NCBI GenBank assembly: GCA_016932595.1
Contig: JAFGCP010000305.1
Coordinates: 1-45,951, forward strand
Length of the DNA: 45,951 nucleotides
Origin: Deltaproteobacteria bacterium
Lineage (GTDB): Bacteria > Desulfobacterota > WTBG01 > CAIYCZ01 > CAIRTM01
Reading direction: 5' to 3'
Position numbers and translations under genes: made by a program
Part shown: one piece after another, positions 1 to 15,062 of the stretch
Layout of the letters: each line of letters starts with the position of its first letter
Numbering within the stretch: position 1 is the first letter of the stretch
The notes under the pieces: generated by a model
Database searches by the model: none
What the model was told of the DNA's origin: nothing
What the model saw: only the letters and a program-made list of their open reading frames with translations

Positions 1-111
1 CGGCACCATAAGCGCCCTGACCCTGTAGCCACGTTTCAAAAGCTCCTGCACCACCAGCCTGCCCGCCCTGCCCGTAGCGCCTGCAACCACTACTGTTTTT
101 TCTTCTGCCAT
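1..111 (-). CDS. NAD(P)-binding Rossmann protein (NmrA/atypical-SDR-like); only the N-terminal 37 codons, gene runs off the left edge
   Basis: Minus-strand ATG at 111..109, with GGGAG 5 nt upstream. Translation is MAEEKTVVVAGATGRAGRLVVQELLKRGYRVRALMVP, which contains a GxxGxxG dinucleotide-binding loop. Confidence 0.6.
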   Translation of the reverse strand, partial: MAEEKTVVVAGATGRAGRLVVQELLKRGYRVRALMVP

Positions 112-250
112 ACGTGTCTCCCTGAGGATTGTTTTTACGTATTCTTCGTAATCCCATAAAGATTTTTTTTCTATTTAAACTCAGCAGGGCTGGCTGTGCC
201 AACCATTGTATACAGCGGGAGTAGCACCTCACATTTTAAAGGCAAAATTA

Positions 251-1978
251 CTACATTCCCAATTCTTTCCTGAACTCCTCAACTGTCGCTCCGATTACGG
301 TATCACGCGATTTGCCCCGGGCATAATCCTCAGTGCCCGATACGGCGGCCTGACGAAAGGGTGAGGGCACCAGCTCAAGCATGCCTTTTGCCTCGTTATC
401 CCACGCCATGGTGAAGGTAAGGCTTGAAATCGGCACTTCTTCATCATCCTCTGCTGCCGGGGCCGATGCTGAGTCGTCGCCAAACACAGCGGCAAATTTT
501 GCCTTGAACTTGGTGGGCGTAAACTTGTCGGACACTTCCCTGAAAATAGAAAGCGTCACGTTCGTGCCGCGCTCTTTCGCTATCTGCTCGGCCACGGAAT
601 GCAGCTTTTTAAGCGCTGTGGCGCGCACGAAATGCGGTATCATCTCGCCCACCTTTATCATGGCCTGTTCTGCCGCGATATCCCAGGGCACCGAGCCCGT
701 GGAGATGGAGCCCATCATATCACCCTTGGTCTCAAGGAATATGCCCATGTAGACTTCGTTCACCAAGCCCTCGACAAGGTACTTGGCGCCCATAAACCCC
801 ATGAACGGGCAGTTCTCCGAGCTCAAATACCCGATAGTGGGAATATCCGAAAAAATAAAATTTTTGAATCCCTCATCCATGCTCACTTTCTTATCATAGA
901 AGTTGCCATAGATGACCATGGGGCCTTTTTCAACGAACTTGTCGCGCTTCTGCTCAATGGTGGGGCATATGAGAACATCATCGCACAAGGCCTCGATGCG
1001 CTTTGCTGCATCGTGGTTGCTCACCGCCGTCATGACAATGCCAACGCCCACCTCTTTATTCAAAAACTCGCTGATGCCCACGGCATAGGTGTTGGCATTT
1101 TCAAGCGACAAAGCCGCCGTCATCTCGAAGGTTACGGTAAAGACCATATTTGATGAAATGAACTCAAAAGCATTGGCCATGGTCTCTTTAAGATACGGGC
1201 CGGCATCAACCTTGAAAAAGTCTGCAATCTGCTCCACCCATGCCGCAGAATTCCCGAACCCGATGGGGATAATATCCGCCATATACGGAATGCCGAAGCG
1301 CTTCTCCATTTCCTGCGCAACCCGCACGCCGCTGTCATAGGGATAGATACAAAGATTGAGCTCTGCCTGAGCAGCATTTTTTATCTGGCCAATGGTTGCA
1401 CCTGCCGTGTAGACGCAGTTGACCGTAACGCCAATACCTGCGAGCATGCGCGTCAGCTCATACACATCGGCGCGCCAGTTAAAGGTTGAAAATGTCGGGC
1501 CGATGATATTGACCGACCTCGAAACTTTTTTGGCTGTCGGGTCGACAAGATCGAGAATGCGGATAAAAGCTGTCTCCTTGCCCTCCACCAGAGAGCCTCC
1601 GATGGGCGGGTGAATAATAACCGTATCTTTAAAACCAGCCTTCTTGACCACGCCTTCCACATCGTCGCGCGTCACCTCCACCGTGGGAGCGGTGACAATG
1701 AGGATCGCGCCGGGCTTTTTTGCCGCGATCTTCTGAAGTGTCGTCTCCATGCGGTCTTCTGCGCCCTGCATGATATTGGCGTACGAGAGGTTGGTCGAAT
1801 ACAGCTCGCAGGTCCAGTCATTGACCAGGGCATTCACGTGCTGGTTTATGTAACAGCCAGGAGGAGAATGAAAGATGGTGTCAGCGCCCTTGATGCCCAG
1901 GCATGCCCAAAGCGCACCCTCAAAAGCCGAGGGCGTGTGAAGCTCCTGCATCTTAAAATCTTTTTGTGTCTCATTCAT
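251..1978 (-). CDS. Nitrogenase component-1-type oxidoreductase, NifN/NifK/BchB-like subunit, with two C-terminal BchB-type (PCP_red-like) domains
   Basis: ORF 251..1990. The likely start is Met5 at 1978, with GGAGG 5 nt upstream and 1 nt after the upstream gene's TGA. The HSPPGCY motif resembles NifK HGSQGC. The tail carries two copies of the W..eA...L...P.F(V)R...E..A pattern seen at the BchB/ChlB C-terminus (aa ~434-490 and ~526-579), separated by an acidic linker. Confidence 0.85.
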   Translation of the reverse strand: MNETQKDFKMQELHTPSAFEGALWACLGIKGADTIFHSPPGCYINQHVNALVNDWTCELYSTNLSYANIMQGAEDRMETTLQKIAAKKPGAILIVTAPTVEVTRDDVEGVVKKAGFKDTVIIHPPIGGSLVEGKETAFIRILDLVDPTAKKVSRSVNIIGPTFSTFNWRADVYELTRMLAGIGVTVNCVYTAGATIGQIKNAAQAELNLCIYPYDSGVRVAQEMEKRFGIPYMADIIPIGFGNSAAWVEQIADFFKVDAGPYLKETMANAFEFISSNMVFTVTFEMTAALSLENANTYAVGISEFLNKEVGVGIVMTAVSNHDAAKRIEALCDDVLICPTIEQKRDKFVEKGPMVIYGNFYDKKVSMDEGFKNFIFSDIPTIGYLSSENCPFMGFMGAKYLVEGLVNEVYMGIFLETKGDMMGSISTGSVPWDIAAEQAMIKVGEMIPHFVRATALKKLHSVAEQIAKERGTNVTLSIFREVSDKFTPTKFKAKFAAVFGDDSASAPAAEDDEEVPISSLTFTMAWDNEAKGMLELVPSPFRQAAVSGTEDYARGKSRDTVIGATVEEFRKELGM

Positions 1979-1979
1979 G

Positions 1980-3215
1980 TCAGCCTCCATATTTCCGCAT
2001 CAGCCCCTGCCAGGTTTCATAGACGGGCTTGTGCATGTTTTTAAAAAAATGAGCGCCAAGATCAATTGCATAATCGTAGCCGTACTCACAGAGGTACAGC
2101 ATGTTGATGAAGGTGGGAACGAGGCGTGCTACACACTCGGGCTGCGCCTGAAACTCGACCGACACTGCCGTTGGCTTAATCCGGTCGACCACCTCGCCGA
2201 TCATGTCGAAATCCTCTTCTATAAAGGTAACGCCATAGCGCTCCTGCATAAGTTTTTTCTCCTGCTGGTAGAATTTATTCTTCATGGAAGGAACCACAAA
2301 AACCTCAGCCCCGAACTCGGCAAAAATCTTGCCGACAGACACTTCGTTTGCCGGACCCGACACCATAAGCATGCGCACTTTCTCTTTAGCAAACCGTTCA
2401 CGAATCTTTTCAAGCTCCGGCTTCACGCGCTTTTCCTCTTCATTAACCAGATCATGGAGCTTCTGATTCTTCAGCCGGTCAGCAACAGCGCGCAGAAAAT
2501 TTGAGGTGCCCTGAATGCCTGCAGGAATCTCGATAAACTCAACGTCGCCGCCGAAGTTTTCGCTGAGGTGCTTGCAGGTAAGCCAGGGGGTTATGTGAAT
2601 CGGGTAATACTTCTCAGCGCAAACGATTTTACTCATGCTGTCAATATGGGGCGTAGGAAAAACAAAGTACGGAATTTCGGCCTTCTTGAAATACATCTCA
2701 AGTGACGCAAGGTTGCCGGCGTCCTGGCCGGTGCGACCTACGATGCCGATGGAGCCGGGCGCCTTCTCCTGCTTTTCGAAGGTGTCAATGACGGCTACCC
2801 ATGCGGCATCAGAGCCAAGGGGCATGGAGCGCGGATAGTTGAAGCCCGTGAGGCAGGTGCTCACCTTCAGGTCCGGTATTTCCTGCTTGAGCTCGATGAT
2901 CACCCCTTCGATATCCTCACCGATGAGCTGGGGAATGCAGGTATTGATGATGACGATGACTTTAGGGTGATATTTCTCATAGAGGTTCTTGACCTGCAGC
3001 TTCAGTCCAGCCTCGCCGCCGAAAATAACGTCGCTTTTGTTGACAAGGGTACCGGCGGTTACAAGCTGCGCCGGGCGGCATGACATGGAGCCAACCTGGT
3101 TCTGATACGAGCATGGTTGCGGCCCGTGCAGAAGCGGTATGACGCCTTCAATTTTGCCAAGGCTTGCCAGAGCCTGAATCGTGGAGCAGCAGTGCTCATA
3201 ATGTTTGAGGGGCAT
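1980..3215 (-). CDS. Nitrogenase component-1-type oxidoreductase, NifE/NifD/BchN-like subunit
   Basis: ORF 1980..3245. The likely start is Met11 at 3215, with AAGGAGG 8 nt upstream. Three Cys motifs (HCCST, HGPQPC, NTCIPQLIGEDIEG) are spaced about 26 and 58 residues apart, like NifD C62/C88/C154, NifE C37/C62/C124 and the BchN triad. Confidence 0.85.
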   Translation of the reverse strand: MPLKHYEHCCSTIQALASLGKIEGVIPLLHGPQPCSYQNQVGSMSCRPAQLVTAGTLVNKSDVIFGGEAGLKLQVKNLYEKYHPKVIVIINTCIPQLIGEDIEGVIIELKQEIPDLKVSTCLTGFNYPRSMPLGSDAAWVAVIDTFEKQEKAPGSIGIVGRTGQDAGNLASLEMYFKKAEIPYFVFPTPHIDSMSKIVCAEKYYPIHITPWLTCKHLSENFGGDVEFIEIPAGIQGTSNFLRAVADRLKNQKLHDLVNEEEKRVKPELEKIRERFAKEKVRMLMVSGPANEVSVGKIFAEFGAEVFVVPSMKNKFYQQEKKLMQERYGVTFIEEDFDMIGEVVDRIKPTAVSVEFQAQPECVARLVPTFINMLYLCEYGYDYAIDLGAHFFKNMHKPVYETWQGLMRKYGG

Positions 3216-3317
3216 GGGAAAAACCTCCTTTTGAATGACCTGCATCTGTGGGGTTCGCTGTGCGCACCGTTGTATCCTGCGACTGCAGCCAATCCTGAAA
3301 ATTGCAATTTGAAATCT

Positions 3318-4169
3318 TTAATGTTTTCTCCCTGCTGCCTGGGCCCACCAGGCATGGAGCTCTTCAAAGGTGAACGACGCGGGCACGGAAAGCTCCTTGT
3401 TATTCAAAATCGATTCGGCAAGACGGCGGAAGGCCTCGCACTCTGCCGTATCAGGCGCATGCTGGAAAAGAGTGAGTCCCTTGCCCGAGCACTCTTTTAT
3501 TTTTTCGCTGTAGGGGATAAACCCGACAAGATGGCTCCCGAGTTTGCGGGAAAATTCATCCAGGATGGTCTGCTCGTCCTTCAGCTCCCGGCCATTGCCG
3601 ATGATGCCGCCGAGCCTGACGCCCGAACGGGAATTGAAGCGCGACACGGCCTTGCAGATATTGGAGGCGGCAAACAACACCTCGAGCTCGCCGCTGCTCA
3701 CGATATAGACCTCGTCGGCATGGCCTTCGCGGATGGGCATGGAGAAACCGCCGCACACCACGTCGCCCAGCACGTCGTAGAGAACCACATCGAGTTTCAG
3801 AACCTCCATCACGTTGAGATGCTTGAGCGCCTCTATGGCCTCCACCACCCCCTTGCCCCCGCAGCCAAGCCCGGGGTCAGGCCCGCCGCTTTCCGCGCAG
3901 AAAATCTTTCCGGAGCAGGTATCGTTAAGCGGGCTTTCAAACACCACCTCGTCCATGGCAAGTGATTTCACCTCAAAGTTCTTCTTCCGCAAAATCCCCA
4001 GCACTGTCTGGGGCATTTTGCCTTTCAGCAGCAGACGCGTGCTGTCATGCTTGGGATCGCAACCCACATGCAGCACCCGCAGACCTTTGGCCGCAAGGGC
4101 AAATGTTATATGGGATGACACCATGGACTTTCCGATACCGCCCTTACCGTAAATAGCTATCTGGCGCAT
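3318..4169 (-). CDS. NifH/BchL-family Fe-protein-like ATPase, paralog 1
   Basis: Walker A is YGKGGIGKS and switch I is GCDPKHDST. The 4Fe-4S Cys motifs are GLGCGGKG and DVLGDVVCGGFSMPIREG. AGAGG lies 6 nt upstream of the ATG. Confidence 0.95.
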   Translation of the reverse strand: MRQIAIYGKGGIGKSMVSSHITFALAAKGLRVLHVGCDPKHDSTRLLLKGKMPQTVLGILRKKNFEVKSLAMDEVVFESPLNDTCSGKIFCAESGGPDPGLGCGGKGVVEAIEALKHLNVMEVLKLDVVLYDVLGDVVCGGFSMPIREGHADEVYIVSSGELEVLFAASNICKAVSRFNSRSGVRLGGIIGNGRELKDEQTILDEFSRKLGSHLVGFIPYSEKIKECSGKGLTLFQHAPDTAECEAFRRLAESILNNKELSVPASFTFEELHAWWAQAAGRKH

Positions 4170-4341
4170 GAGAGACCTCTTTTATTTATTGTGACGAATT
4201 CCTTACGTACCCTTGAGTTATGTTGGGTTAAGCCCGACAGAAACCGTTGGGTTTCGTACCTCAACCAAACCATCAAATTATTTATATAAGGGGCATGTTT
4301 CAAACCTGCCCCTGCAATCACAAGGGCGAACCCAACAAAGC

Positions 4342-5181
4342 TTAGTTTATATACGGCAGCCACCAGTCATAGAGCTCTTCAAACTCAAGAGTATTCGGGA
4401 TAACAAGATTTTTATTGTGAAACACCTTCTGCCCGATCTCGCGGTAGAGATTCGCCTCCGGCGAATTCGGCGCGCATTGAAACACGGTCTCGCCGTCACC
4501 GCCGCACTGCTTAACGGTCTGACTGTAGGGAATGACGCCCACGATCCGGGTGCCGATCTTTGCGGCAAAGTCCGTCACCATCTGCAGCTCATTTTTCACG
4601 CGCCGCAAATTAACGATGAGCCCGCCGAGCTTTGAGCCGGCGCGAGTTTCAAAGCGCTTGATGGCCTTTGACACATTGCTCACCTGATAGAGCGCCTCGA
4701 ACTCGCCGCTGGTCACCACATAGGTTTCCTGCGCAAAGCCCTGACGTATGGGCAGGGAAAAACCGCCGCAGACGACATCGCCCAGGATGTCGTATATAAC
4801 GATATCGATATCAAGTGCCTTGAATATACTGAGTTTTTTTATCGTGTCGATGGCTTCAACTACGCCCTTGCCGCCGCATCCCACGCCGGGCTCAGGGCCG
4901 CCGCTCTCGGCGCAGTAGATTTTGCCGCCATTTTCAAACTGCAGGGGCGATGTGGCAATAATATCTTCAGGGGAAAGGTCGTCGTACATGAAATCATTTT
5001 TACGCAGCACGTCAAGAATCGTCGGCGGGAAGTCAGGTAGCAGAAGATAGGTGCTGTCGTTTTTCGGGCTGCACCCCATCTGCAGCACTTTCATGCCCTT
5101 CTCTGCAAAGGAGTAGGAAAGATGTGATGCTACCGTAGATTTACCAATACCTCCTTTGCCATAAAGTGCAATCTGCCGCAT
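4342..5181 (-). CDS. NifH/BchL-family Fe-protein-like ATPase, paralog 2 (switch I Asp replaced by Ser)
   Basis: Walker A is YGKGGIGKS. The Cys motifs are GVGCGGKG and DILGDVVCGGFSLPIRQG. Switch I reads GCSPKNDST, with the Ser codon at 5068..5070. The AAGGAGG Shine-Dalgarno site overlaps the marR stop codon. Confidence 0.95.
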   Translation of the reverse strand: MRQIALYGKGGIGKSTVASHLSYSFAEKGMKVLQMGCSPKNDSTYLLLPDFPPTILDVLRKNDFMYDDLSPEDIIATSPLQFENGGKIYCAESGGPEPGVGCGGKGVVEAIDTIKKLSIFKALDIDIVIYDILGDVVCGGFSLPIRQGFAQETYVVTSGEFEALYQVSNVSKAIKRFETRAGSKLGGLIVNLRRVKNELQMVTDFAAKIGTRIVGVIPYSQTVKQCGGDGETVFQCAPNSPEANLYREIGQKVFHNKNLVIPNTLEFEELYDWWLPYIN

Positions 5182-5192
5182 AGGTTTCCTCC

Positions 5193-5672
5193 TTACTCCT
5201 TGTTATGGACGGCGACATTTTTCATAATTGCATTGACGACACGCAGCGACTTCAACAGCCGCACACGTTGCTTTTCATCAAGGCATCCAAAAATATTCAT
5301 CAGCTCCTGCTCGCGTGTATTTAAAATACCGCCGTGTGCCTTTTTCCCGCTATCTGTCAGCCGTACTTTAACGACCCGGCGGTCTGCAGTATCGCGAACG
5401 CGCTCCACAAAGCCTTCCTCAACAAGTTTGTCGACGACCTCGGTCATGCTGGGCATTTTCACATTGGCGATTTTGCACAGCTCTCCCATGCTGTAGTGCC
5501 GGTCTTCGTGAAACGCCGTCATAGCCTTAAGCTGAGAGTTGTTGACCGGAAAACCCATCAGCCCTTTGCTGCTCATCACCATATGCTGAAAAAGGTCCGA
5601 AAAAAGATTTCTGACCTCGATTAAATGCATTTCTATTTCGGTAAGTTCACTGAGCTGCTTGCTGTGTTTCAT
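5193..5672 (-). CDS. MarR-family transcriptional regulator, first gene of the nitrogenase-like operon
   Basis: Winged-helix MarR signature: YSMGELCKIANVKMPSMTEVVDKLVEEGFVERVRDTADRRVVKVRLTDSGKK. It lies 11 nt upstream of the next gene. Confidence 0.9.
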   Translation of the reverse strand: MKHSKQLSELTEIEMHLIEVRNLFSDLFQHMVMSSKGLMGFPVNNSQLKAMTAFHEDRHYSMGELCKIANVKMPSMTEVVDKLVEEGFVERVRDTADRRVVKVRLTDSGKKAHGGILNTREQELMNIFGCLDEKQRVRLLKSLRVVNAIMKNVAVHNKE

Positions 5673-5755
5673 GGCACATATCCTTTTGCAATGATGATCC
5701 GGCTGCCAACTACGATGCTATAAATTTCAGCAAAAAATATTTCAGATAAAAAAAA

Positions 5756-5797
5756 TTCACTAGTGAAGTATATAGACTCTGAATTTCTCTTTGTCAA
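5756..5797 (-). promoter_or_regulatory. Sigma70-type promoter plus palindromic candidate operator for the marR/nitrogenase-like operon
   Basis: On the minus strand, TTGACA (5797..5792) is followed by a 17-nt spacer and TATATA (5774..5769). The perfect 12-bp palindrome TTCACTAGTGAA (5756..5767) abuts the -10 box. Confidence 0.5.
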
Positions 5798-5884
5798 GTC
5801 AGGAATTTTTGTATTTTTAAACTTTAAAAGCTGCAGGATGATCCAAATGACGTAACGTGCTGATTAAACATGCTGCATCCGGAA

Positions 5885-5932
5885 ATAAAAAAACAGGCTT
5901 TACCCGCAACACTGTTGCGGTCTGGCCTGTTG
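5885..5932 (-). terminator. Rho-independent terminator downstream of the second marR
   Basis: The minus-strand RNA reads AACAGGC-CAGA-CCGCAAC-AGU-GUUGCGG-GUAAA-GCCUGUU followed by U7. This is a nested GC-rich hairpin with a U tract. Confidence 0.7.
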
Positions 5933-6031
5933 TGTCTGTGCGCGGAAACGGTGTGCGTAACAATCGTGTATTCGACGCGAAACGGCTAGCAGGGGGGGGG
6001 CAAGAAGCATGCAGCTTCCCATATATGCCGG

Positions 6032-6502
6032 CTAAGGCTGTGTTGTCTTCTTTAAAATACCTGAAACCTTTCGCAAAGCCGTGAGCAGTTCATCCTGATC
6101 CTTCTGTGAAAGTTTGCCAAAGAGATTACCCATCTCCTCGCGGCGACGGCCTATGAATTTATCGTGAATCTTTTTGCCTGCATCAGTCAGCGCCACTTTG
6201 ACCACGCGGCGATCCTTTGTGTCGCGCACCCGTTTGAGCAAGCCCTCGGACTCGAGCCGATCGACCATCTCTGTCATGCTTGGCATCTTCACCAGGGCGT
6301 TCCTGCTTAACTCCGTCATACTGTACTCGCGGTCTTCGTGAAACGCGGTTAGCGCCTTCATCTGCGACAGAGTCACGGACATATCGCTGATACGGCGGCT
6401 GCCCTTGACCATTTTGTTGAAAATCTGCACGAAAAGGTTGCGCACCTCTATCATATGTTCTTCAATCTCAGTGACTTTTTCCATAAAAACCTTACTATCC
6501 AT
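6032..6502 (-). CDS. MarR-family transcriptional regulator, paralog of 5193..5672
   Basis: ORF 6032..6514. The likely start is Met5 at 6502, preceded by GAGG, and this gives the same N-terminal length as the paralog. The signature is YSMTELSRNALVKMPSMTEMVDRLESEGLLKRVRDTKDRRVVKVALTDAGKK. Confidence 0.9.
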   Translation of the reverse strand: MDSKVFMEKVTEIEEHMIEVRNLFVQIFNKMVKGSRRISDMSVTLSQMKALTAFHEDREYSMTELSRNALVKMPSMTEMVDRLESEGLLKRVRDTKDRRVVKVALTDAGKKIHDKFIGRRREEMGNLFGKLSQKDQDELLTALRKVSGILKKTTQP

Positions 6503-6516
6503 GCAGCACCTCATTT

Positions 6517-6570
6517 TAGGATTTTTAATATTTAATATCCTAATATATTAATTACATATCTTTATGTCAA
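6517..6570 (-). promoter_or_regulatory. Sigma70-type promoter plus inverted-repeat candidate operator for the second marR
   Basis: On the minus strand, TTGACA (6570..6565) is followed by a 17-nt spacer and TATATT (6547..6542). The inverted repeat TAGGAT-N14-ATCCTA (6517..6542) starts at the -10 box. Confidence 0.5.
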
Positions 6571-6967
6571 GTTTTATTTTATATTTTCAATCAATTTTCA
6601 ATAAATATTTTTGAAACCATTTTGAACATACGCTATATAGCTAAACGAACGGTGCTAGAACCTGTGTAATAGCAGAACCTGCCGAGTTTTTTTAGTTTTA
6701 ATAACATGGCTGGCGGAAGATGACATTTGTTTTTGATAGTGTTCTCTTGCAGGAGAGGCTTCAGCCACGAAACAATCGCACCTGAAGCTGCTGCTGCAAT
6801 GAAAACAATGCCCTCCAATTTAAAATGTCATGGCCCCGGGACCATTCATTGCTGCGATTCTTGTGCAATCGGCTCGTCCTGCGATTCTGGAAATACTAAA
6901 GTTTATTTGAAATTTTATTAAGCAAGGGGTTCCCGGGATACAGAGTGATTGGCGGCAGCTATTATTT

Positions 6968-8689
6968 TTGATGAAACAGGCGCACAACCTGTTTCTACTC
7001 TTCAATCAAAACAACACTCCTTCGAAACATATGAAAATAATCTACGCATCCGATATTCATGAGTCTTATAAAAACCTGCAAAAACTCTTTCGTATGACAG
7101 AGGCCGACCTCTATATAATCGCAGGAGACCTCCTTTACAGCGCCTTCCCTTCATGGGAACTTGCCGAACGCTTCACTGAGATGCAGCAACGCGTCTATTC
7201 CTGGGGCTTAAGCCGCGGCATAAAGGGAACACGCTTTACTATGGCCCGGCATATGCTTGAAACGCCGGAGACTCCTTTAATTGAACAGGCCCTCGCAAAA
7301 GAATTTCTTCGCATCACCGATCTTGCACAAGCAAGCATGCTTCAAAAATACGGCCGCATGGCAAAAATTTTTACCGCATCCGGCAAGACCGATATAATAA
7401 CCATCCCCGGCAACTACGATATGGATCTTAAAGAAACCGCCCTCGCATCATGGAACCTGCATCTGCAAACACGGATCATAAACGGGATTACCTTCGCCGG
7501 CTACGGTGGATCACCGGTATTCACGCCCGGCATACCCGACAACCTTCGGATTACCTACAATGAACTCAGGCAGAACGGGCGGCTCATATCTGAACCCTAT
7601 GAATTTTTCACAAAAACCAGCCCTGATGTTATCCTGCTGCACCAGCCTGCCTACGGTTACCTGGATACAATTGCCACCTACGGCAGCATCGGCAGTATTG
7701 GCGTTCGAGATTTTATCGACCACAGCAGCGTGCGCCTCGTGCTCAGCGGCCATATGCATGAAGACTGGGGTGCGATTTTCAAGCAGGGTAAAGTTTTCTT
7801 GAACCCTTCAAATTTCGGCCGCGTCGTAGAAATTCACCGTATTAAAAAAGGCGGCTACTTTACCGAATTTACCATGGACGGCACTACCTTCACAGGGGGC
7901 ATGCTGCGCCAGATCGACGGCGGAAAGGCATACGATATTGAGCAGTGCATTATGCGTGACGACAAATTCCGGCTGCTGGTGATAGACCTCAAGCGATACC
8001 GCTATCTCTCAAACATAAAAAAACGCCAGAAGCATATACGCGCCATACGCCTGTTTAATGCGCTGCGTGGGTTCTTTCAGAAACATGAAACCGAGGCAAC
8101 CCGCACACGCATAGAAGCACTAAAGGAATTCTGCCGCAAACTTCATAAGGAAGGCCATGAGATAGCATTCCACCTGCTTGGTTCTCTTAATTTCGGCATG
8201 GCGACCGACACATCGGATCTTGACACCGTGCTCTACTTCCGCGACCCGGCGATTACCGTTCCCGATGATGTCTCCTACCCTGTGCCCGACTACGTACGCT
8301 CACGCCTGGGAGAGCTGAAAGACAGCGGCATTGATCTTTCCATCTGCGACTGCTTAAATCTTGCGCGCATCGAGGAAGCGATCATCGCGCAGGATGTGGA
8401 CAACACGCTTCTGCAGCGCTTTATTTTTTATTATGGCACCTGCCGCTGCGTAAACGCGGAGCCCATCAAGGAGGTGGAAAACCTGCTCACCAACATGCAG
8501 CCGTTCCGCTTTGAGGTTGAAGGAGAGCTGGCCGAGGTCTTCCGCATGATGATCAGCAGCTTTCGCCACTCCTTCTCATTCAAAAAATACCAGATGCGCC
8601 TGCATGAAAAAGGCCTGACCGTGCCGCCATACATTGAAGAAAAAATCTGGGAGTATCTTGAATACCGGGATGAAAAGCAACAAAAATAA
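6968..8689 (+). CDS. Fusion protein: calcineurin-like metallophosphoesterase (N-terminal) plus Pol-beta-superfamily nucleotidyltransferase (C-terminal)
   Basis: The phosphoesterase motifs are SDIH, AGDLL, PGNYD, LLHQP and SGHMH. The nucleotidyltransferase motif is LLGSLNFGMATDTSDLDTVLY (G[SG]...DxD). The biological start may be the ATG at 7031 (MKIIYASDIH). Neither candidate start has an obvious Shine-Dalgarno site. Confidence 0.8.
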   Translation: MMKQAHNLFLLFNQNNTPSKHMKIIYASDIHESYKNLQKLFRMTEADLYIIAGDLLYSAFPSWELAERFTEMQQRVYSWGLSRGIKGTRFTMARHMLETPETPLIEQALAKEFLRITDLAQASMLQKYGRMAKIFTASGKTDIITIPGNYDMDLKETALASWNLHLQTRIINGITFAGYGGSPVFTPGIPDNLRITYNELRQNGRLISEPYEFFTKTSPDVILLHQPAYGYLDTIATYGSIGSIGVRDFIDHSSVRLVLSGHMHEDWGAIFKQGKVFLNPSNFGRVVEIHRIKKGGYFTEFTMDGTTFTGGMLRQIDGGKAYDIEQCIMRDDKFRLLVIDLKRYRYLSNIKKRQKHIRAIRLFNALRGFFQKHETEATRTRIEALKEFCRKLHKEGHEIAFHLLGSLNFGMATDTSDLDTVLYFRDPAITVPDDVSYPVPDYVRSRLGELKDSGIDLSICDCLNLARIEEAIIAQDVDNTLLQRFIFYYGTCRCVNAEPIKEVENLLTNMQPFRFEVEGELAEVFRMMISSFRHSFSFKKYQMRLHEKGLTVPPYIEEKIWEYLEYRDEKQQK

Positions 8690-8737: not shown

Positions 8738-9292
8738 CTATTGTGCATCTCTTTTCCATATAACATTGCGCAAGCCTTCGCGGTAGCACAGTCGGCGGAT
8801 TTTATGGGGAATTATTGTGACAATATTGAAATTATAGGAGTCTGCAGCCTCACTAAGGCCCTGCTCTTCAAGTTGTTTCAAATACCGTGAATACGCGCGA
8901 ATTTCACGAAAACGATTACTATCTTCATTTTTTCTAAAAACATTGGCGATGCCCCAAACCTGCATTCCTGAGGCCCCGAAAAAATCAACTCCGGGGTTGT
9001 AGGGATCGGCGATACTATAGGATACTTTTTCGTTTGCGTGCATGTTGGCTATTTTGCCCCCACCCTCGCAGAACATATGCACGGTGAGGCCGTTATTAAA
9101 ATACTCAACTGGCGTGCACCGGGGCTCATTGTCCTTGCAGGTTGCCAAATGCAGCACGTTGTGGCTGCTGAGATAGTTGATGGCCATTTCAATGAACTCT
9201 TCTTCCGTCATGGCCGCACGCATATTGATTCCGGCCATTTCAAAGGCCTTCAGCTCTTTGGCGTTTGGTTGCGGGACGATTACTTTTCCCAT
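8738..9292 (-). CDS. Pyridoxamine 5'-phosphate oxidase-like (split-barrel flavin-binding) family protein
   Basis: 184 aa. The segment LHLATCKDNEPRCTPVEYFNNGLTVHMFCEGGGKIANM resembles the PNPOx-like fold family. AGGAGG lies 8 nt upstream of the ATG. Confidence 0.5.
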   Translation of the reverse strand: MGKVIVPQPNAKELKAFEMAGINMRAAMTEEEFIEMAINYLSSHNVLHLATCKDNEPRCTPVEYFNNGLTVHMFCEGGGKIANMHANEKVSYSIADPYNPGVDFFGASGMQVWGIANVFRKNEDSNRFREIRAYSRYLKQLEEQGLSEAADSYNFNIVTIIPHKIRRLCYREGLRNVIWKRDAQ

Positions 9293-9869: not shown

Positions 9870-10364
9870 CTAAACGGAGTCAGAACCCTTCTGTAGCAGA
9901 GCAATGATATGGGGGGCGCTGCGTTCAACAATCGGCCCCAATTCTTTAACTACTGCCAGATATTCTTCCGGAGAAACCATTGCAACATCGGGTATATCAT
10001 AGCGCTGCATAATCATCTCGCTTAACATGTAAACACGCGCTGCGTACTGTGGAAATTCGACTTGCAGAGCTTCTTTATGAAAGCTTGTCATGCACAAAAC
10101 AAGATCGGATTCAGCCAATAAATCGCTTGTTATTGAGCGGGAGCGATGATGCCTCAGATCAATGCCCGCAGCAAGCAAATGGGGCAAAACCGACGAAACA
10201 ACACATTCGCCATCCTGCGCCCAGGTTCCGCAGGACTCAACATGCCAGGAACCGGTTATCCGATGCTGCTGCAGCCATTTTTTAAATAAAAATACCGCAA
10301 TCGGGGAACGACATAAATTGGCCGTACACACAAACATTACTGTTGGCATATAACCGGTCCACAA
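9870..10364 (-). CDS. Low-molecular-weight protein-tyrosine phosphatase (Wzb-like)
   Basis: The CX5R(S/T) P-loop is VMFVCTANLCRSP near the N-terminus. The protein is ~160 aa and lies directly downstream of the BY-kinase gene. Confidence 0.85.
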   Translation of the reverse strand: MWTGYMPTVMFVCTANLCRSPIAVFLFKKWLQQHRITGSWHVESCGTWAQDGECVVSSVLPHLLAAGIDLRHHRSRSITSDLLAESDLVLCMTSFHKEALQVEFPQYAARVYMLSEMIMQRYDIPDVAMVSPEEYLAVVKELGPIVERSAPHIIALLQKGSDSV

Positions 10365-10419: not shown

Positions 10420-12114
10420 CTATACACTGGGTAACGTTTTTTTTTCCTTTTCTTTTACAAACATTCGGTTAAACTGCTTTTTGACTAAGCACTGCATATA
10501 CGCAACCGGATTCTTGAGTAATCCGGGCTGAAAGTTATTCTCCTCATTATATTTGGAATTGTAATAATAGCTGCTGTAATGGTAATGATAATAGGTGCTT
10601 CTATCACGAGGCGCCTTGTTGAAAACAACCCCTATAATATAGGCACCTGCGCGCTCCAGCTGCTCTTTGGCGTGCAGCAGATCTGCAAACCGCGTCTTGC
10701 CCACCTCAACGACCAGAACCACCCCATCAACCCTATGGGCCAGCATGGATGCATCCGTCATTGCCGCAATAGGCGGGGAGTCTAACAGGATAATATCGCT
10801 CGTTTCTGCAATGAAGTCCAGCAACTGCCCCATTTTATTCGACCCCAGCAACTCAGCCGGATTGGGAGGAAGGTTGCCGGCGTTCAGTAAACTCAGGTTG
10901 GGAGCATCCGTTGGCCGCAATACATTTTCAAAATTAATTGTCTCCTGCAGCAGAAGCGCTGAGAGGCCATGCCTGTTTGATTTATCGAAATGCTTGTGCA
11001 GAGACGGGCGATGCATATCGCAATCAAGCAGGGCAACCGTTTTGCCGGCCTGGGCGAAAACAGTGGCAAGGTTTGCAGCCACAAAGGATTTTCCCTCCTG
11101 GGCATTGATGCTCGTTACGAGAATCCTGCGCATAGGCCTTTCAATGCCGGCATACAGTATATTGGACCGAAGAAATCGAAACGCCTCGGTTATGGGCGCA
11201 CGAGGCTTTTTATGCGCGATCGGTTTGTCCTCTGCCTCCTTGCTTGACAGGAGAACAGCTACCCCAATCAGAGGAAGTTGCAGACCCGTGGTGATCTGTT
11301 CAGCATTTTTAATGGAATCGTCCAGGTAATCAATGATAAAAATCAAAGCAACACCAAGCAGCAAACCGAAAATAACGCCCAAAACCACACTTCGGGCAAT
11401 GCGGGGGCGAACCGGAAACAGGGGCACACTTGCCCTGTCTACAACAATCACATTGTTCAAAATTTGGGCTTCAACCAGGCGTTGACTTTCATAACTTTGC
11501 ACCAGGCTGGATCGGCTTTGCCGCAAACGGACCAAATCAGATTCAAGGGAGGACCGCTTGTTTAATGCCGAGGGATCGTTATTGCCAAACAATGTGGCAA
11601 TCTGAGACTCCATCTGCTCGATCTGTTTATCAAGGGCGGCAATTTCCTTGGCAAGGCTTTTTTTGGATTCAACAAAACGGCTCGACTGAGTAGAGTTATT
11701 GTATGCGATAAACACTTCCGGGATAAGGTTACAAAGGGCTGCCGCACGCACCGGATCCGTATCATCGACGCTCAACCTGATTAATTGCGTATCCTTCACC
11801 AATTGCACCTGAAGCATCCAGACGAGTGCTTGGGCGTTAAACGGACACTTCAAACGGGCAACAACCTCAGAGAGTATCGCTTCTGACTGCAGCAATTGAA
11901 CATAGGTGCGCGCCAGCCGCTCACTGACTTGGAGCGAAGCTAAATCAACGCCCTTCGCACCCGAGGCTTCACTGATCAAAACTGTACTGACGGCCTGAAA
12001 CACAGGCTCCTGCATGGAGCTTCTCAGATATGCAAACCCGCCGCTGAAAGCTATACAAAAAAATAACAGCCACCACCATCGCAATAAAAGAGAGAAATAC
12101 CCTCGAAGCTCCAC
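10420..12114 (-). CDS. Polysaccharide co-polymerase / tyrosine autokinase (Wzc/GumC/EpsG-like BY-kinase)
   Basis: There is an N-terminal TM segment, a Wzz-like coiled region and a second TM segment. The ATPase motifs are Walker A (NAQEGKS), A' (LLDCDMHRP) and B (IILLDSPP). The Tyr cluster is STYYHYHYSSYYYNSKY. Confidence 0.9.
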   Translation of the reverse strand: MELRGYFSLLLRWWWLLFFCIAFSGGFAYLRSSMQEPVFQAVSTVLISEASGAKGVDLASLQVSERLARTYVQLLQSEAILSEVVARLKCPFNAQALVWMLQVQLVKDTQLIRLSVDDTDPVRAAALCNLIPEVFIAYNNSTQSSRFVESKKSLAKEIAALDKQIEQMESQIATLFGNNDPSALNKRSSLESDLVRLRQSRSSLVQSYESQRLVEAQILNNVIVVDRASVPLFPVRPRIARSVVLGVIFGLLLGVALIFIIDYLDDSIKNAEQITTGLQLPLIGVAVLLSSKEAEDKPIAHKKPRAPITEAFRFLRSNILYAGIERPMRRILVTSINAQEGKSFVAANLATVFAQAGKTVALLDCDMHRPSLHKHFDKSNRHGLSALLLQETINFENVLRPTDAPNLSLLNAGNLPPNPAELLGSNKMGQLLDFIAETSDIILLDSPPIAAMTDASMLAHRVDGVVLVVEVGKTRFADLLHAKEQLERAGAYIIGVVFNKAPRDRSTYYHYHYSSYYYNSKYNEENNFQPGLLKNPVAYMQCLVKKQFNRMFVKEKEKKTLPSV

Positions 12115-12330
12115 CCCCCACTCCTTTCAAATATACAGGAAAGCAACTGTTCTATCTGCACCATAAATGCTTCAGCAGCATACCTATCTTGGCAAACAAA
12201 TAAAACAATTATTAAATCAACAATTGCATTTTTATATTATATCAACACAAACAACTTTGGTCAAATCCAATCTTTTTTACAATAAACTGCTATTGGATTC
12301 ATGCTCCACCTTGCTCGGACCCTTTTGCGA

Positions 12331-12534
12331 TCAGTGTTGTACTCCTTCTCTCCTGGCGACCTTAAAAAAGGTCAGCAGAATAATCTTCATATCAAGCAGC
12401 ATAGAGCGGTTCCTCAAATACTACTCATCGAATGGCGCCTTCACCGGCATCGGAAATTCATCCCGACCATTAATCTGCGCCCAACCCGGCAAAACGGGAT
12501 TCAGCCTATGAATCTCTTTCCGACAAATCCGGTT
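12331..12534 (-). pseudogene. 3' fragment of a bacterial sugar transferase (initiating phosphoglycosyl transferase, WbaP/PglC/EpsL family) with an in-frame TAG
   Basis: The minus-strand translation is NRICRKEIHRLNPVLPGWAQINGRDEFPMPVKAPFDE*YLRNRSMLLDMKIILLTFFKVARREGVQH. It matches the family C-terminal signature PGxTGWAQxNGR...D.eY..n.S..lD.kI. The in-frame TAG is at 12421..12423. The N-terminal two thirds are absent, and the intact GT2 gene ends at 12554. Confidence 0.7.
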
Positions 12535-12553
12535 TCACCGGCAGCAAACACGT

Positions 12554-13303
12554 TCATGCAGGCCTCTGAAAGAGTTGGGCCACTTTGCGAAAATATTTTG
12601 AGTACACTTTCAGCATGTTCGTTGAAATACCATTTTCGGCACAAGCCCGCAAAATCTCCCGGTTCAGTATCCAGTTGCTCCGCAGTCCACGCGTACTGAG
12701 CCCACCGGTACGCATCCGTACAATGACCTCAGGTAAATAGGCGTACCTCACCCGGTGGCGGGCCAAAAAGCGGGCAGTCAATTCGTAATCCGCCGCAATC
12801 CGGTAATCGGTTCGAAACAGGCCAAAACGCTCATATATCTCCCGACGGACAAAAAATGTCGGGTGGGGTGGCATCCACCCCCATGCAAACTTCTCCGGCG
12901 TGAAGCCCGCACCCGCATAGTAGCGCACCACCTGATCCAGATTGTTCGGCTTCACATACACCAGATCCGCAAACAGGGCCTCGGCGCCGCTTTCCCGGAA
13001 CATGCGCAGAACCTTCTCAAGCACCTGCGGGCCGGCATAAAAATCATCAGAATTGAGTATTCCCACGATATCGCCGGTTGCAAGCCTGATACCCTTATTC
13101 ATTGCCTCATAGATGCCGTGATCCGGCTCGGAGAGAATACGGGCAGTGGGAGAAAGTCTGCGCACGATCTCAAGGGTGTTATCAGTGGACGCACCATCAA
13201 TAATAATATGCTCGGAGGGAGATGTCTGTTCATCAACACTGCGCAGGCAGTCCGAGATAGTCGCGGAGGAATTGAAGGTGGCTGTGATGATGGAAATATC
13301 CAC
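12554..13303 (-). CDS. Family-2 glycosyltransferase (WcaA-like)
   Basis: Motifs are ISIITATFNS....IIIDGASTDNT and ILNSDD. A GTG start lies 1 nt after the upstream stop codon. Confidence 0.85.
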   Translation of the reverse strand: MDISIITATFNSSATISDCLRSVDEQTSPSEHIIIDGASTDNTLEIVRRLSPTARILSEPDHGIYEAMNKGIRLATGDIVGILNSDDFYAGPQVLEKVLRMFRESGAEALFADLVYVKPNNLDQVVRYYAGAGFTPEKFAWGWMPPHPTFFVRREIYERFGLFRTDYRIAADYELTARFLARHRVRYAYLPEVIVRMRTGGLSTRGLRSNWILNREILRACAENGISTNMLKVYSKYFRKVAQLFQRPA

Positions 13304-13304
13304 C

Positions 13305-15062
13305 CTAGTTTTCCCTGCGCTCCATAAACCAGTTCCCCATCACCAGTACATCCATCCTGGTGCGCAAAAAACAGTCGAGGGCTTCCTCCGGTTTACAGAC
13401 CACCGGCTCATTTTCATTAAATGATGTATTGAGGACCGTCGGCACCCCGGTGATGGCCTCAAAGGACTTGATCAAATGATAATAACGGGGGTTCTGTAAT
13501 TCGGTTACACTCTGCAAGCGGCCCGAACCGTTGACATGGGTAACCGCCGGAATCAGCTGCCGCTTATCCTCACGAATCTGATACACTTGCAGCATAAAGG
13601 GAACATCATAATCGGTTTCAAACCATTCCTCAACTGCTTCACGGATTATCGAAGGAGCAAAAGGCCGAAACGATTCACGACGCTTGATCTTCAGGTTCAG
13701 GATATCCTTCATGTCGGCGCGACGAGGATCGCAGACGATAGAACGGTTGCCCAGCGCTCGCGGCCCCCACTCCAAGCGCCCCTGAAACCAGCCGATCACC
13801 TTGCCTTCAGCAACCCGTAGCGCCGTCCGGCGGCACAGCTCTGCTTCGTCCAAAATCTCCTCAACTGAGCAATTCACCGCCTGTATCTTTTGAGCATTCA
13901 CAGTCAACAGTTCGCCGATCTCCGCATTGCTGAACTCCGGTCCGAGATAGGCATGATCCATTACAAAAGAACGCGGATTGCCCAGTTCCTGGTTCCAGAC
14001 ATAAAACGCAGCGCCGATTGCACCGCCGCCGTCTCCGGCCGCCGACTGGATATAAATCTCCCGGAAGGGGCTCCTGTCAAAAACCTTGCCATTGGCAACT
14101 GAATTCATGGCGCAGCCGCCGGATAGGCAAAGATTCGGGGACTTCGTTTCCATATGGACATGCTGCAGCAAATGAAAAAAAGCCTCTTCGTACATCGCCT
14201 GAAGAGAAGCGGCCAGATCCTTGTGATACTGGCTCAGCGGCTCATCTCTGCCCCGTGGCGGCCCCAGCAGCTCAGCCAGCTTCGCCGAATAGACGGTGCC
14301 GATCTTCGGCTCGCCATCCTCCCATACCATGGAGACCCCTTCGGAATGATGAATAAAATAATCCAGATCCAGCTCAAAAAGCCCTTTTGGCTTCAGCAGA
14401 ACGATCCGCCGCATTTTCTCCAGCTGAGACACTGAACCATAGGGCGCCAAGCCCATGACTTTATATTCGTCGCCGTAATGGGGAAAACCCAGAAACTGGG
14501 TCATGGCCAGATAGAACAGGCCCAGCGAGTGCGGGAATGACACCTCATCGTGAACGGTGATGGATGCCCCGCTCCCCATGCCCCACATGGTGCTGAGAAA
14601 ATCACCGAAACCGTCTACTGAAACAACGGCGGCCGAATCAAAAGACGAGACAAAAAAAGAGCTGGCCAAGTGCGCCAGATGGTGCTCCACATCATGGATG
14701 CGGGCACGGCAGCTGTCCGCTTTTACCCCCAGCCCTTGACACAGCAGTGCCCGAATATCTTTAACCTTTCCGGCATTCCTGAGCCGGTCTTTGATCGCTT
14801 CAAGGCTGGGGCGCTTGGTGAACGCAAAAAGCGCCTTCTGCAGGAGGTGGGCGCTTGGTTTGCGGTTAATGGCGATATGGTCAACCTGGTCGATAGATAT
14901 CCCGCCTGCCGACAGGCAATAGCGCACTGCCTGGGTCGGAAGCCCAGCCCAGTGCTTGATGCGCCTGAAACGTTCCTCTTCGGCAGCTGCCACCAGCTGG
15001 CCGTTGATAAGGAGACAGGCTGACGAGTCTCCGTGATATGCATTAAGTCCAAGTATAATCAT
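13305..15062 (-). CDS. Carbamoyltransferase (NodU/CmcH family)
   Basis: The N-terminus ILGLNAYHGDSSACLLINGQLVAAAEEERFRRIKH and the 585-aa length are typical of the family. Stop and start codons are tightly packed with the neighbouring genes. Confidence 0.85.
   Translation of the reverse strand: MIILGLNAYHGDSSACLLINGQLVAAAEEERFRRIKHWAGLPTQAVRYCLSAGGISIDQVDHIAINRKPSAHLLQKALFAFTKRPSLEAIKDRLRNAGKVKDIRALLCQGLGVKADSCRARIHDVEHHLAHLASSFFVSSFDSAAVVSVDGFGDFLSTMWGMGSGASITVHDEVSFPHSLGLFYLAMTQFLGFPHYGDEYKVMGLAPYGSVSQLEKMRRIVLLKPKGLFELDLDYFIHHSEGVSMVWEDGEPKIGTVYSAKLAELLGPPRGRDEPLSQYHKDLAASLQAMYEEAFFHLLQHVHMETKSPNLCLSGGCAMNSVANGKVFDRSPFREIYIQSAAGDGGGAIGAAFYVWNQELGNPRSFVMDHAYLGPEFSNAEIGELLTVNAQKIQAVNCSVEEILDEAELCRRTALRVAEGKVIGWFQGRLEWGPRALGNRSIVCDPRRADMKDILNLKIKRRESFRPFAPSIIREAVEEWFETDYDVPFMLQVYQIREDKRQLIPAVTHVNGSGRLQSVTELQNPRYYHLIKSFEAITGVPTVLNTSFNENEPVVCKPEEALDCFLRTRMDVLVMGNWFMERREN

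Follow-up and report, generated by a model that had tools for sequence, protein, structure and literature searches.

The 45,951-nt contig JAFGCP010000305.1 of a Deltaproteobacteria bacterium (GCA_016932595.1), referred to here as the window, carries at one end a tightly packed operon for an uncharacterised enzyme that is related to nitrogenase and to the dark chlorophyll reductases and has two different Fe proteins. The gene neighbours of this operon and its relatives point to reduction, in oxygen-free sediments, of a molecule that resembles haem, chlorophyll, or a bile pigment, and we give somewhat better than even chances to the prediction that the enzyme is an inducible ATP-driven reductase of a tetrapyrrole, either macrocyclic or linear. 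Nitrogenase-like enzymes perform some of the hardest reductions in biology. The functions of the uncharacterised nitrogenase-like (NFL) clades have been described as the main open problem of the field, with gene context of little help so far (review PMC13474568, 2026). The present family is unusual for its convergent context clues, namely genes resembling ferredoxin-dependent bilin reductases (FDBRs), chelatase and B12-radical-SAM (S-adenosylmethionine) genes, two other reductase families, a transport set, and one repressor. As these clues converge under one repressor, a concrete substrate screen becomes possible. The operon encodes a nitrogenase-like reductase for which the class of substrate can now be put to the test and in which the Fe protein is potentially a heterodimer of a new type. 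Its Fe proteins resemble NifH/CfbC more than BchL/BchX, its alpha subunit resembles NifE, and its beta subunit BchB/BchZ, a mixture that is relevant to the origin of the chlorophyll reductases.

Gene calls were taken from an open reading frame (ORF) listing and a Pfam profile search, curated scores were obtained with the NCBIfam equivalog models, and spacings were checked on the sequence. An initial annotation, made from the DNA alone, had described five linked genes on the minus strand in the order marR, two nifH-like genes, N, and B, and both the coordinates and the Pfam domains agreed with this description (Table 1). The two Fe-protein genes are named Ha and Hb here, and N and B encode the alpha-type and beta-type catalytic subunits. 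The spacings given at that time also agreed with the sequence. The marR stop codon lies 11 nt from the ATG of Ha, inside AAGGAGtaAGGAGG; the start of an NmrA-like NAD(P)-binding gene (position 111) lies 139 nt past the B stop; and N and B are separated by 1 nt when B starts at Met5 (ATG at 1978), a residue that is invariant among orthologs. The longest B ORF overlaps N by 11 nt. The spacer between Ha and Hb (4170–4341) is unusually long at 172 nt, and the same two genes overlap or abut in several relatives. It contains a GC-rich hairpin, the folding energy of which was no better than that of shuffled sequence (z = −0.89), and an Rfam scan of positions 1–7000 for a riboswitch or leader gave no match with E ≤ 0.1. 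The reported absence of nifB, nifEN, nifV, bch, and cfb genes from the window was borne out by Pfam and by a survey of the window genes, in which radical-SAM genes were absent as well.

The presence of NifH-type Fe proteins (Walker A, Cys97, and Cys132) and Oxidored_nitro subunits in one operon places the system in the NFL superfamily. All four enzyme proteins scored below every NCBIfam equivalog cut-off for Nif, dark-operative protochlorophyllide oxidoreductase (DPOR), chlorophyllide oxidoreductase (COR), and CfbCD. The scores of B were 158.9 bits for BchB (cut-off 490) and 117.5 bits for BchZ (529), those of N were 83 for NifE (505) and 54.7 for BchN (420), and those of Ha and Hb were 300 for NifH (394), 296 for CfbC (402), 207–220 for BchL (345), and 175–187 for BchX (331); the CfbD model gave 18–40 bits (268). 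Among solved structures, a sequence search placed B nearest to ChlB/BchB (69 bits), N nearest to NifEN, NifK, and MarD (at most 75 bits), and Ha nearest to MarH (PDB 9fmg, chain D; 242 bits) and then NifH, with BchL far behind (156 bits). The AlphaFold model of B (predicted local distance difference test score, pLDDT, of 85) superposed best on BchB/ChlB, with a target-normalised TM-score of 0.80–0.83 and a root-mean-square deviation of approximately 3.1–3.3 Å.

When B was compared exhaustively by HMMER with 1.84 billion representative proteins, three full-length representatives scored at least 396 bits and the matches that followed fell to at most 131 bits at no more than 30% identity; by this measure, the family of B has a sharp boundary. 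No more than 23% identity was shared with BchB, BchZ, and NifD/K/E/N. In neighbour-joining trees with R. litoralis BchLNB and BchXYZ, N. vulgaris NifHDKE, C. taiwanensis NifEN, and a Sporomusa NFL system as references, the B family and the N family each formed a clade of their own with 100% bootstrap, and a single-H system of Omnitrophota type was their sister, also with 100%. Neighbour joining on sequences that are 15–25% identical gave no resolution of the deep branching order among NFL groups, and no order is claimed.

A genome scan with two peptide patterns, which covered one genome per species and may have missed divergent N-B copies, returned 33 distinct loci. All of them came from metagenome-assembled genomes (MAGs) or single-amplified genomes assigned to Thermodesulfobacteriota ("delta proteobacterium"), one Spirochaetota, and several Gammaproteobacteria/Chromatiales; the family was found only in uncultured members of these groups. 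The source habitats are anoxic lake water and sediment as well as Danish soils and sediments. The core order MarR-Ha-Hb-N-B was present in approximately 15 of the 33. In metagenomes, B was represented by more than 130 sequence clusters, none of which was informatively named, and the cluster-member names of the nearest outgroup representatives were equally uninformative. The initial annotation had placed the proteins outside the characterised branches and had reasoned that this view would fall if they nested inside a characterised clade or if homologous operons were always embedded in known nif, bch, or cofactor F430 clusters. The equivalog scores, the low identities, and the separate clades with full bootstrap all agreed with that placement, and none of the 33 loci was embedded in a nif, bch, or cfb cluster, so neither of the two situations was encountered.

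The metal ligands separate the enzyme further from nitrogenase. In N, Cys20, Cys45, and Cys103 occupy the positions of NifD Cys62, Cys88, and Cys154 and align with the canonical alpha cysteines of NifE, NifK, and MarD; these three and an additional Cys56 were invariant in 30 orthologs. In B, Cys46 (HSPPGCY) lies at the position of the Asp36 ligand of ChlB/BchB and was conserved in at least 90% of 46 sequences, and the other two beta-subunit positions are not Cys. The ortholog alignment contained no conserved equivalents of NifD Cys275 and His442 in N. Because three Cys from N and Cys46 from B are available and FeMo-cofactor ligands are lacking, the enzyme is predicted to hold one inter-subunit [4Fe-4S] cluster on four Cys, of the class found in DPOR, COR, and CfbCD and not of the P-cluster/L-cluster class of Mar and nitrogenase (PMC13474568). 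The tandem BchB-type C-terminal domains ascribed to B were recovered as two PCP_red repeats (residues ~434–480 and ~525–575), both of which align to the C-terminal region of BchB/ChlB.

Ha and Hb share 51% identity, and each is 41–42% identical to NifH and 31–38% identical to BchL/BchX. The Ha sequences formed a clade with 100% bootstrap and the Hb sequences one with 98.5%, and both were joined with an unplaced single-H protein (P0278) in a clade of 92%. Together with their sister, the single-H Omnitrophota proteins, they formed a 99% clade that lay on the side of NifH, CfbC, and Sporomusa NflH and apart from BchL/BchX in neighbour joining. Since Ha and Hb form separate orthologous clades across the loci, their duplication is old and lineage-specific; it predates the split between the Thermodesulfobacteriota/Spirochaetota and the gammaproteobacterial family members. 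The two genes were always adjacent and co-retained.

The statement that the Fe-protein hallmarks are intact was upheld for Walker A and the cluster ligands Cys97 and Cys132 in both paralogs and for switch I in Hb, whereas switch I of Ha is altered. Both proteins also keep Lys10, Lys15, Asp125, and Asp129 (A. vinelandii NifH numbering, with the motif columns rechecked against the annotated N. vulgaris NifH). Hb has a canonical switch I with an invariant GCDPKHDSTRLL. The corresponding segment of Ha reads GCSPKNDSTY, where every aligned reference (NifH, BchL, BchX, NCBI-annotated CfbC, and Sporomusa NflH) has GCDPK. The D39S replacement was present in 15 of 18 Ha sequences, including that of the window, and Arg46 was variable; gammaproteobacterial Ha proteins retain Asp39, and two of the three shown carry K41M.

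The pairing of a canonical Hb with a degenerate Ha suggests an asymmetric heterodimer, an arrangement that, to our knowledge, has not been described for NifH-type proteins. If heterodimeric, such a canonical/degenerate pair would be new for this ATPase family and would inform how ATP hydrolysis at two sites is coupled to electron transfer. Ha and Hb may otherwise form separate homodimers that work with distinct N-B cores or at distinct reduction steps, in the way that BchL belongs to DPOR and BchX to COR. Seven MAGs, which contain one Ha-Hb-N-B locus and one or two N-B-only loci (~51% identical), weigh against the heterodimer and keep the two-homodimer model a live alternative, as do the intact Cys97, Cys132, Lys10, and Lys15 of both paralogs. 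We consider separate homodimers unlikely, as the two genes stay together even in the complete Chromatiales chromosome (L034), where a single Ha-Hb-N-B locus was seen, and switch I changes are confined to Ha, with Hb invariant, as is typical of a degenerate/canonical pair; the scan by two peptide patterns may nevertheless have overlooked divergent N-B copies.

With DPOR (Group V), the system shares three components, a B subunit that is most BchB-like by profile (159 bits), structure-sequence search (69 bits), and fold (TM-score 0.80–0.83), a PCP_red C-terminal domain on that subunit, an alpha-type subunit that gives three Cys to the inter-subunit cluster, and an acidic residue near the position of BchB Asp274. 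It differs from DPOR in that identity is only ~21–23% and the BchB, BchN, and BchL equivalog scores are not reached, in Cys46 as the fourth ligand in place of the (Cys)3-Asp ligation, and in its tandem PCP_red and two Fe-protein paralogs. Its Fe proteins are closer to NifH, CfbC, and MarH (41–47%) than to BchL (31–38%), and N is closer to NifE/NifD than to BchN; bch/chl context is missing and the hosts are non-phototrophic. With COR (Group V), the likeness lies in BchZ, which tblastn ranked first for B with ~24% identity across 80% of the length, and COR is also thought to use Cys, not Asp, as the fourth ligand. The COR cluster ligands are called unknown in the review (PMC13474568). The BchZ score of 118 bits is far from the 529 needed, the H proteins are 32–33% identical to BchX, and no bch/puf genes were present in the 33 loci. 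CfbCD resembles the system in its Fe proteins (296 bits on the CfbC model and 41–47% identity to two NCBI-annotated CfbC), in a simple [4Fe-4S] cluster with a tetrapyrrole substrate, and in the CfbA-like gene that stands beside the operon in the closest relatives. CfbD is, however, a single homomeric subunit where two are found here, the score on the CfbC model stays below the required 402 bits, and the bacterial hosts lack mcr and cfb genes.

A cryptic or alternative nitrogenase that fixes N2, or a misannotated DPOR/COR of an unrecognised phototroph, would be in line with the automatic labels of B ("light-independent protochlorophyllide reductase B subunit" or "nitrogenase component 1") and with the 300 bits that the H proteins reach on the NifH model. 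This explanation is extremely improbable. The ligand pattern is 3 + 1 Cys, with one of the three beta Cys in B and no conserved Cys275/His442 equivalents in N; the window lacks nifB, nifE, nifN, and nifV; none of the 33 loci contains bch, puf, or chl genes; all scores lie below the equivalog cut-offs; and B shares no more than 23% identity with BchB/BchZ. N2 fixation and ordinary DPOR/COR were thus effectively excluded by sequence evidence from scores, ligands, and gene context.

The review lists Nfa, CfbCD, Mar, Isr, DPOR, and COR as characterised NFL systems and Groups IV-D, IV-E, and VI as uncharacterised (PMC13474568). Mar (MarBHDK, IV-C) and Isr (IsrHDK, IV-F) are ATP-dependent NFL enzymes with substrates other than N2, and MarH is the closest solved structure to Ha. 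Mar has P-cluster and L-cluster ligands and requires MarB, whereas B has one Cys instead of three and L-cluster ligands are lacking. Differently from Mar and Isr, the window contains no NifB-like or radical-SAM gene, and there is no sulfur-metabolism context; the single beta-subunit Cys of three and the absence of NifB and radical-SAM genes from the window also set the system apart from Nfa (IV-A).

Group VI NFL, from Elusimicrobia, Gracilibacteria, and Myxococcales, is described as having a NifH that is sister to Group V, radical-SAM-rich neighbourhoods, at most four P-cluster Cys, and no NifB, and a role in tetrapyrrole cofactor synthesis was proposed for it (Meheust et al. 2020). The present system similarly has no more than four of the six P-cluster Cys sites filled, no NifB in the window and fetched loci, H proteins that are ~40% identical to NifH, and tetrapyrrole/radical-SAM genes in the paralog loci and the sister clade. 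In contrast, its H proteins branch apart from BchL/BchX in neighbour joining, and radical-SAM genes are absent from the window, with B12-radical-SAM genes in three or four paralog loci and three radical-SAM genes in the sister Omnitrophota locus. The Group VI description, on which the comparison was based, does not mention a fixed Ha-Hb pair, MarR control, or tandem PCP_red. The present family may be related to Group VI or even lie within it. In the nearest sister system (L045; GCA_018400015.1, 4936–15580), a single H gene, N, and a B of 502 aa lie among three radical-SAM/SPASM genes and a TP_methylase gene, a setting that resembles the published Group VI description. The system probably belongs to Omnitrophota, as its H protein shares 73% identity with that of Candidatus Gygaella obscura. 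The nearest BchB-like protein outside the family (P0135, locus L044) lies in a locus with a single H gene and no informative neighbours.

The consensus promoter proposed for the operon was upheld in part: the −35 hexamer is perfect and followed by a 17-nt spacer, but the −10 hexamer matches at only four of six positions. A consensus promoter scan did not list this promoter, because position 6 of its −10 is A, and the hits of the scan inside genes were at chance level. The −35, the −10, and a TTCA-N4-TGAA inverted repeat directly after the −10 were kept in the five closest loci, with varying flanking sequence, and the half-sites stood at the equal position in L006, L007, L008, and L010. The exact 12-bp palindrome was found elsewhere only in L033; the half-sites and not the 12-mer are the conserved feature. 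A MarR gene precedes the reductase genes in approximately 20 loci. Autorepression that is lifted by a ligand is the standard MarR mechanism, and it is the likely one here, with marR adjacent to its predicted targets and a palindrome overlapping the promoter. The gating by MarR that had been suggested for the operon is therefore supported by the conserved palindrome right after the −10, the putative binding site.

Neighbouring genes were counted within 10 kb of B in the 33 loci. An FDBR-like (bilin-reductase-like) gene (PF05996) was present in four loci in four different arrangements, a CbiX/ferrochelatase-like chelatase gene in four (including L006 and L007), a B12-binding radical SAM gene in three or four beside N-B paralogs, and a DUF169 gene in four. 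NmrA/NAD_binding_10 and aldehyde:ferredoxin oxidoreductase (AFOR) genes occurred in five loci each, and a DUF1302/DUF1329/BNR/MMPL transport set in seven. Known enzymes of bilins or haem occur in three of the accessory families: the FDBRs; NAD_binding_10, to which BLVRB and ChuY belong; and the PNPOx-type split-barrels, which include HugZ-type haem oxygenases and F420-dependent biliverdin reductases. The closest relatives of the window, L006 and L007 (93% and 91% identity), show that the operon continues past the window edge, a continuation that was missed in the initial annotation. In L006, the NmrA-like gene is followed by the CbiX/ferrochelatase-like gene, and L007 has no NmrA-like gene but a membrane-anchored chelatase-like gene directly after B. 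The best curated match of the chelatase-like protein was CfbA, the F430 nickelochelatase (43 bits, below the cut-off).

The modular character of the neighbourhood is illustrated by L047, with the order MarR-NmrA-FDBR-DUF1302-DUF1329-BNR-MMPL-peptidase M17. The same syntenic slot holds MarR-N-B-DUF1302... in L002 and MarR-Ha-Hb-N-B-NmrA-FDBR in L001, and on account of this shared slot, the NFL, NmrA-like, and FDBR-like genes are regarded as interchangeable or combinable modules of one MarR cassette with a transport system. The FDBR-like family is compact (240 residues), and each of its 134 sequence clusters bears a hypothetical-protein label. The FDBR gene clusters described in the pre-PcyA papers are different ones and contain no NFL genes. 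Our literature search found no report that links NFL enzymes with bilin reductases, anaerobic haem degradation, or Desulfobacterota, and none that joins an NFL system with an FDBR-like gene, a fixed Fe-protein paralog pair, tandem PCP_red, or MarR control.

From these features, we predict a three-component ATP-driven low-potential reductase that would work in the manner of DPOR/COR. An Fe protein reduced by ferredoxin or flavodoxin would bind MgATP and dock on an (N-B)2 core. Ha and Hb would most likely form this protein together, as an asymmetric heterodimer with a single bridging [4Fe-4S]. Single electrons would pass to the inter-subunit [4Fe-4S] held by C20, C45, and C103 of N and C46 of B, and onward to an organic substrate bound between N, B, and the C-terminal PCP_red helices of B, for which E289 of B is a candidate proton donor. 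The substrate would most likely be a tetrapyrrole (a porphyrinoid macrocycle or a bilin) and the reaction the reduction of a C=C bond. MarR would repress the operon at the TTCA-N4-TGAA operator until the substrate or a related ligand derepresses it. The NmrA-like NAD(P)H reductase may work on the same compound series, which the FDBR-like, chelatase-like, and DUF1302/DUF1329/BNR/MMPL transport genes of the relatives may also serve.

All characterised NFL enzymes that use only a simple catalytic [4Fe-4S] (DPOR, COR, and CfbCD) reduce tetrapyrroles (PMC13474568). This precedent of the cluster class, combined with the accessory families, PCP_red, and the chelatase-like and B12-radical-SAM genes, makes the tetrapyrrole the best supported substrate, with the link to the neighbours circumstantial. 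The ATP-driven reductase for a planar, possibly tetrapyrrole-like substrate that had been hypothesised at the outset gains support from the FDBR-, chelatase-, B12-radical-SAM-, NmrA-, and PNPOx-like neighbours, from which we infer the substrate. A fuller scheme, in which Ha and Hb form an obligate asymmetric heterodimer, the first among NFL enzymes, and act with FDBR-, NmrA-, and PNPOx-like reductases in an anaerobic pathway that imports and reduces bilins or porphyrinoids (breakdown products of haem, chlorophyll, or phycobilin) in sulfate-reducing sediment bacteria, is put forward tentatively and is quite unlikely to hold in every part.

Several observations weigh against a tetrapyrrole reductase with a uniform four-Cys site. 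In gammaproteobacterial B, Tyr replaces Cys46 and the second PCP_red repeat is missing; therefore, cluster ligation is not uniform across the family. Glu289 of B is invariant and aligns with the Asp of the ChlB "SID" motif (= BchB Asp274, the proton donor) in the T. elongatus alignment, and its role as a proton donor is suggestive only, because the equivalence appears in one of two BchB alignments. The FDBR-like protein is remote from characterised FDBRs (54 bits in Pfam; best solved structure HY2, E = 0.03), and the NmrA-like protein matched ChuY (30 bits) and BLVRB (23 bits) weakly, with a plant protein of unknown function as the best hit. As PDB searches with the FDBR-, NmrA-, and PNPOx-like neighbours gave remote or generic matches, we assign no specific activity to these proteins. 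Genes for a haem oxygenase, a ChuW-like protein, or the uroporphyrinogen pathway were not seen beside the operon. No neighbour is universal, and many loci have only AFOR, short-chain dehydrogenase/reductase (SDR), hydrolase, and DUF1302/DUF1329/MMPL genes, which would fit any hydrophobic substrate. All family members come from uncultured organisms.

The same type of enzyme might instead act on a hydrophobic or aromatic sediment compound other than a tetrapyrrole, for example in a dearomatising or C=C-reducing step of an inducible catabolism. MarR regulators typically sense aromatic acids, and the best NCBIfam match of a second MarR protein encoded in the window was HpaR (48.6 bits, below the cut-off). 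The commonest downstream genes (DUF1302/DUF1329/BNR/MMPL in seven loci and AFOR in five, plus SDR and alpha/beta-hydrolase) would suit such a pathway, and the recently characterised Mar and Isr use small non-tetrapyrrole substrates (PMC13474568). These two, however, belong to Group IV and have P-/L-type clusters or other ligand patterns, and their NifB or radical-SAM partners have no counterpart here; the closest matches of B are BchB/BchZ; PCP_red is otherwise known from the B subunit of protochlorophyllide reductase; and four unrelated tetrapyrrole-associated gene families recur beside the operon. A non-tetrapyrrole substrate thus appears fairly improbable.

A tetrapyrrole might also be reduced in the biosynthesis of a novel tetrapyrrole-derived cofactor, like CfbCD in F430 synthesis and as proposed for Group VI, and not in inducible salvage or catabolism. 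The CfbA/CbiX-like gene directly after B in L007 and after the NmrA-like gene in L006, the three radical-SAM genes and TP_methylase of the sister Omnitrophota locus, the B12-radical-SAM genes beside N-B paralogs, and the match to the Group VI description in several respects are in its favour. We regard it as distinctly unlikely, since a repressor, outer-membrane/MMPL transport genes, and a patchy cassette in one slot are more typical of substrate-induced functions, cfbCD expression is apparently constitutive according to the review (PMC13474568), and no complete precursor pathway lies nearby.

Some of the related loci showed arrangements of their own. In L020, L022, and L026, tandem H-less N-B pairs flank a divergent 290-aa protein (f32, no Pfam match) and a MarR gene, and are followed by a CbiX-like gene, an FAD-dependent oxidoreductase gene, and a tetratricopeptide repeat (TPR) protein gene. 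The FDBR-like family also occurs without NFL genes in L046, L047, and L048, which belong to Thermodesulfobacteriota and a Schekmanbacteria-like contig. There, the FDBR-like genes adjoin PNPOx-like, DUF169, SDR, and O-methyltransferase genes, in a bilin-reductase-like lineage of anaerobes that lies outside the discussion of the pre-PcyA papers. L006, from a long-read MAG, was examined through tblastn only because of its many frameshifts; those that break its NmrA-like and chelatase-like genes (11700–13900) look like an assembly artefact and not like pseudogenisation.

Table 1. Features of the reductase operon, its promoter region, and the adjoining genes in the window.
Feature	Position	Strand	Evidence and remarks
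marR (proximal), first gene of the operon; likely autoregulated repressor	5193–5672	−	Pfam MarR, E = 8.3e-11
Ha (nifH-like 2 in the initial annotation), Fe-protein paralog with degenerate switch I	4342–5181	−	Fer4_NifH, E = 3.6e-85
Hb (nifH-like 1 in the initial annotation), canonical Fe-protein paralog	3318–4169	−	Fer4_NifH, E = 6.8e-92
N, alpha-type catalytic subunit, NifE/NifD/BchN-like	1980–3245	−	Oxidored_nitro, E = 2.2e-47
B, beta-type catalytic subunit, BchB/BchZ-like	251–1978 from the probable Met5 start; longest ORF 251–1990	−	Oxidored_nitro, E = 3.4e-57; PCP_red matched twice
PCP_red repeats of B	~551–691 and 275–403	−	Pfam and alignment
NmrA-like/NAD_binding_10 reductase gene, 5' end only, crossing the window edge	1–111	−	Full-length orthologs in L001 and L006 match PF13460, E = 2.7e-38
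−35 hexamer TTGACA, perfect match	5792–5797	−	Read from sequence; TTGACA also upstream of marR in most orthologous loci
−10 hexamer TATATA, 4/6 against TATAAT, final T missing	5769–5774	−	17-nt spacer from the −35
Putative MarR operator TTCACTAGTGAA, perfect 12-bp palindrome overlapping the transcription start	5756–5767	.	One copy in the window
Second marR paralog, 54% identical to the proximal marR	6032–6514	−	Pfam; separate transcription unit; promoter 6570–6542 (11/12 match), terminator-like hairpin 5907–5893
Metallophosphoesterase-domain protein, 573 aa	6968–8689	+	Pfam; N-terminal calcineurin-like domain, weak C-terminal nucleotidyltransferase palm match (PF22600)
PNPOx-like split-barrel flavoprotein	8738–9292	−	Pfam PNPOx_N; tblastn matches in L006, L007, and L030

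The second marR gene, which the initial annotation had also missed, is again found as part of a marR pair in L006 and L007. The metallophosphoesterase gene is divergent from the marR genes and is kept in both of these relatives, and Metallophos genes adjoin the FDBR-like gene in L004 and L048, although the association is weak. Further PNPOx-like genes are located near NFL or FDBR-like genes in L002, L004, and L046, and the metallophosphoesterase and PNPOx-like genes possibly belong to the recurrent neighbourhood. The minus strand of positions 9870–45002 is occupied by a long polysaccharide/lipopolysaccharide biosynthesis cluster that is unrelated to the reductase operon. It encodes a low-molecular-weight phosphatase, Wzz/BY-kinase, glycosyltransferases of families GT2, GT4, and GT9, a carbamoyltransferase, heptose-pathway enzymes, UDP-GlcNAc 2-epimerase, DegT, a thiamine pyrophosphate (TPP) enzyme, a Wzy-type ligase, and Polysacc_synt_2.

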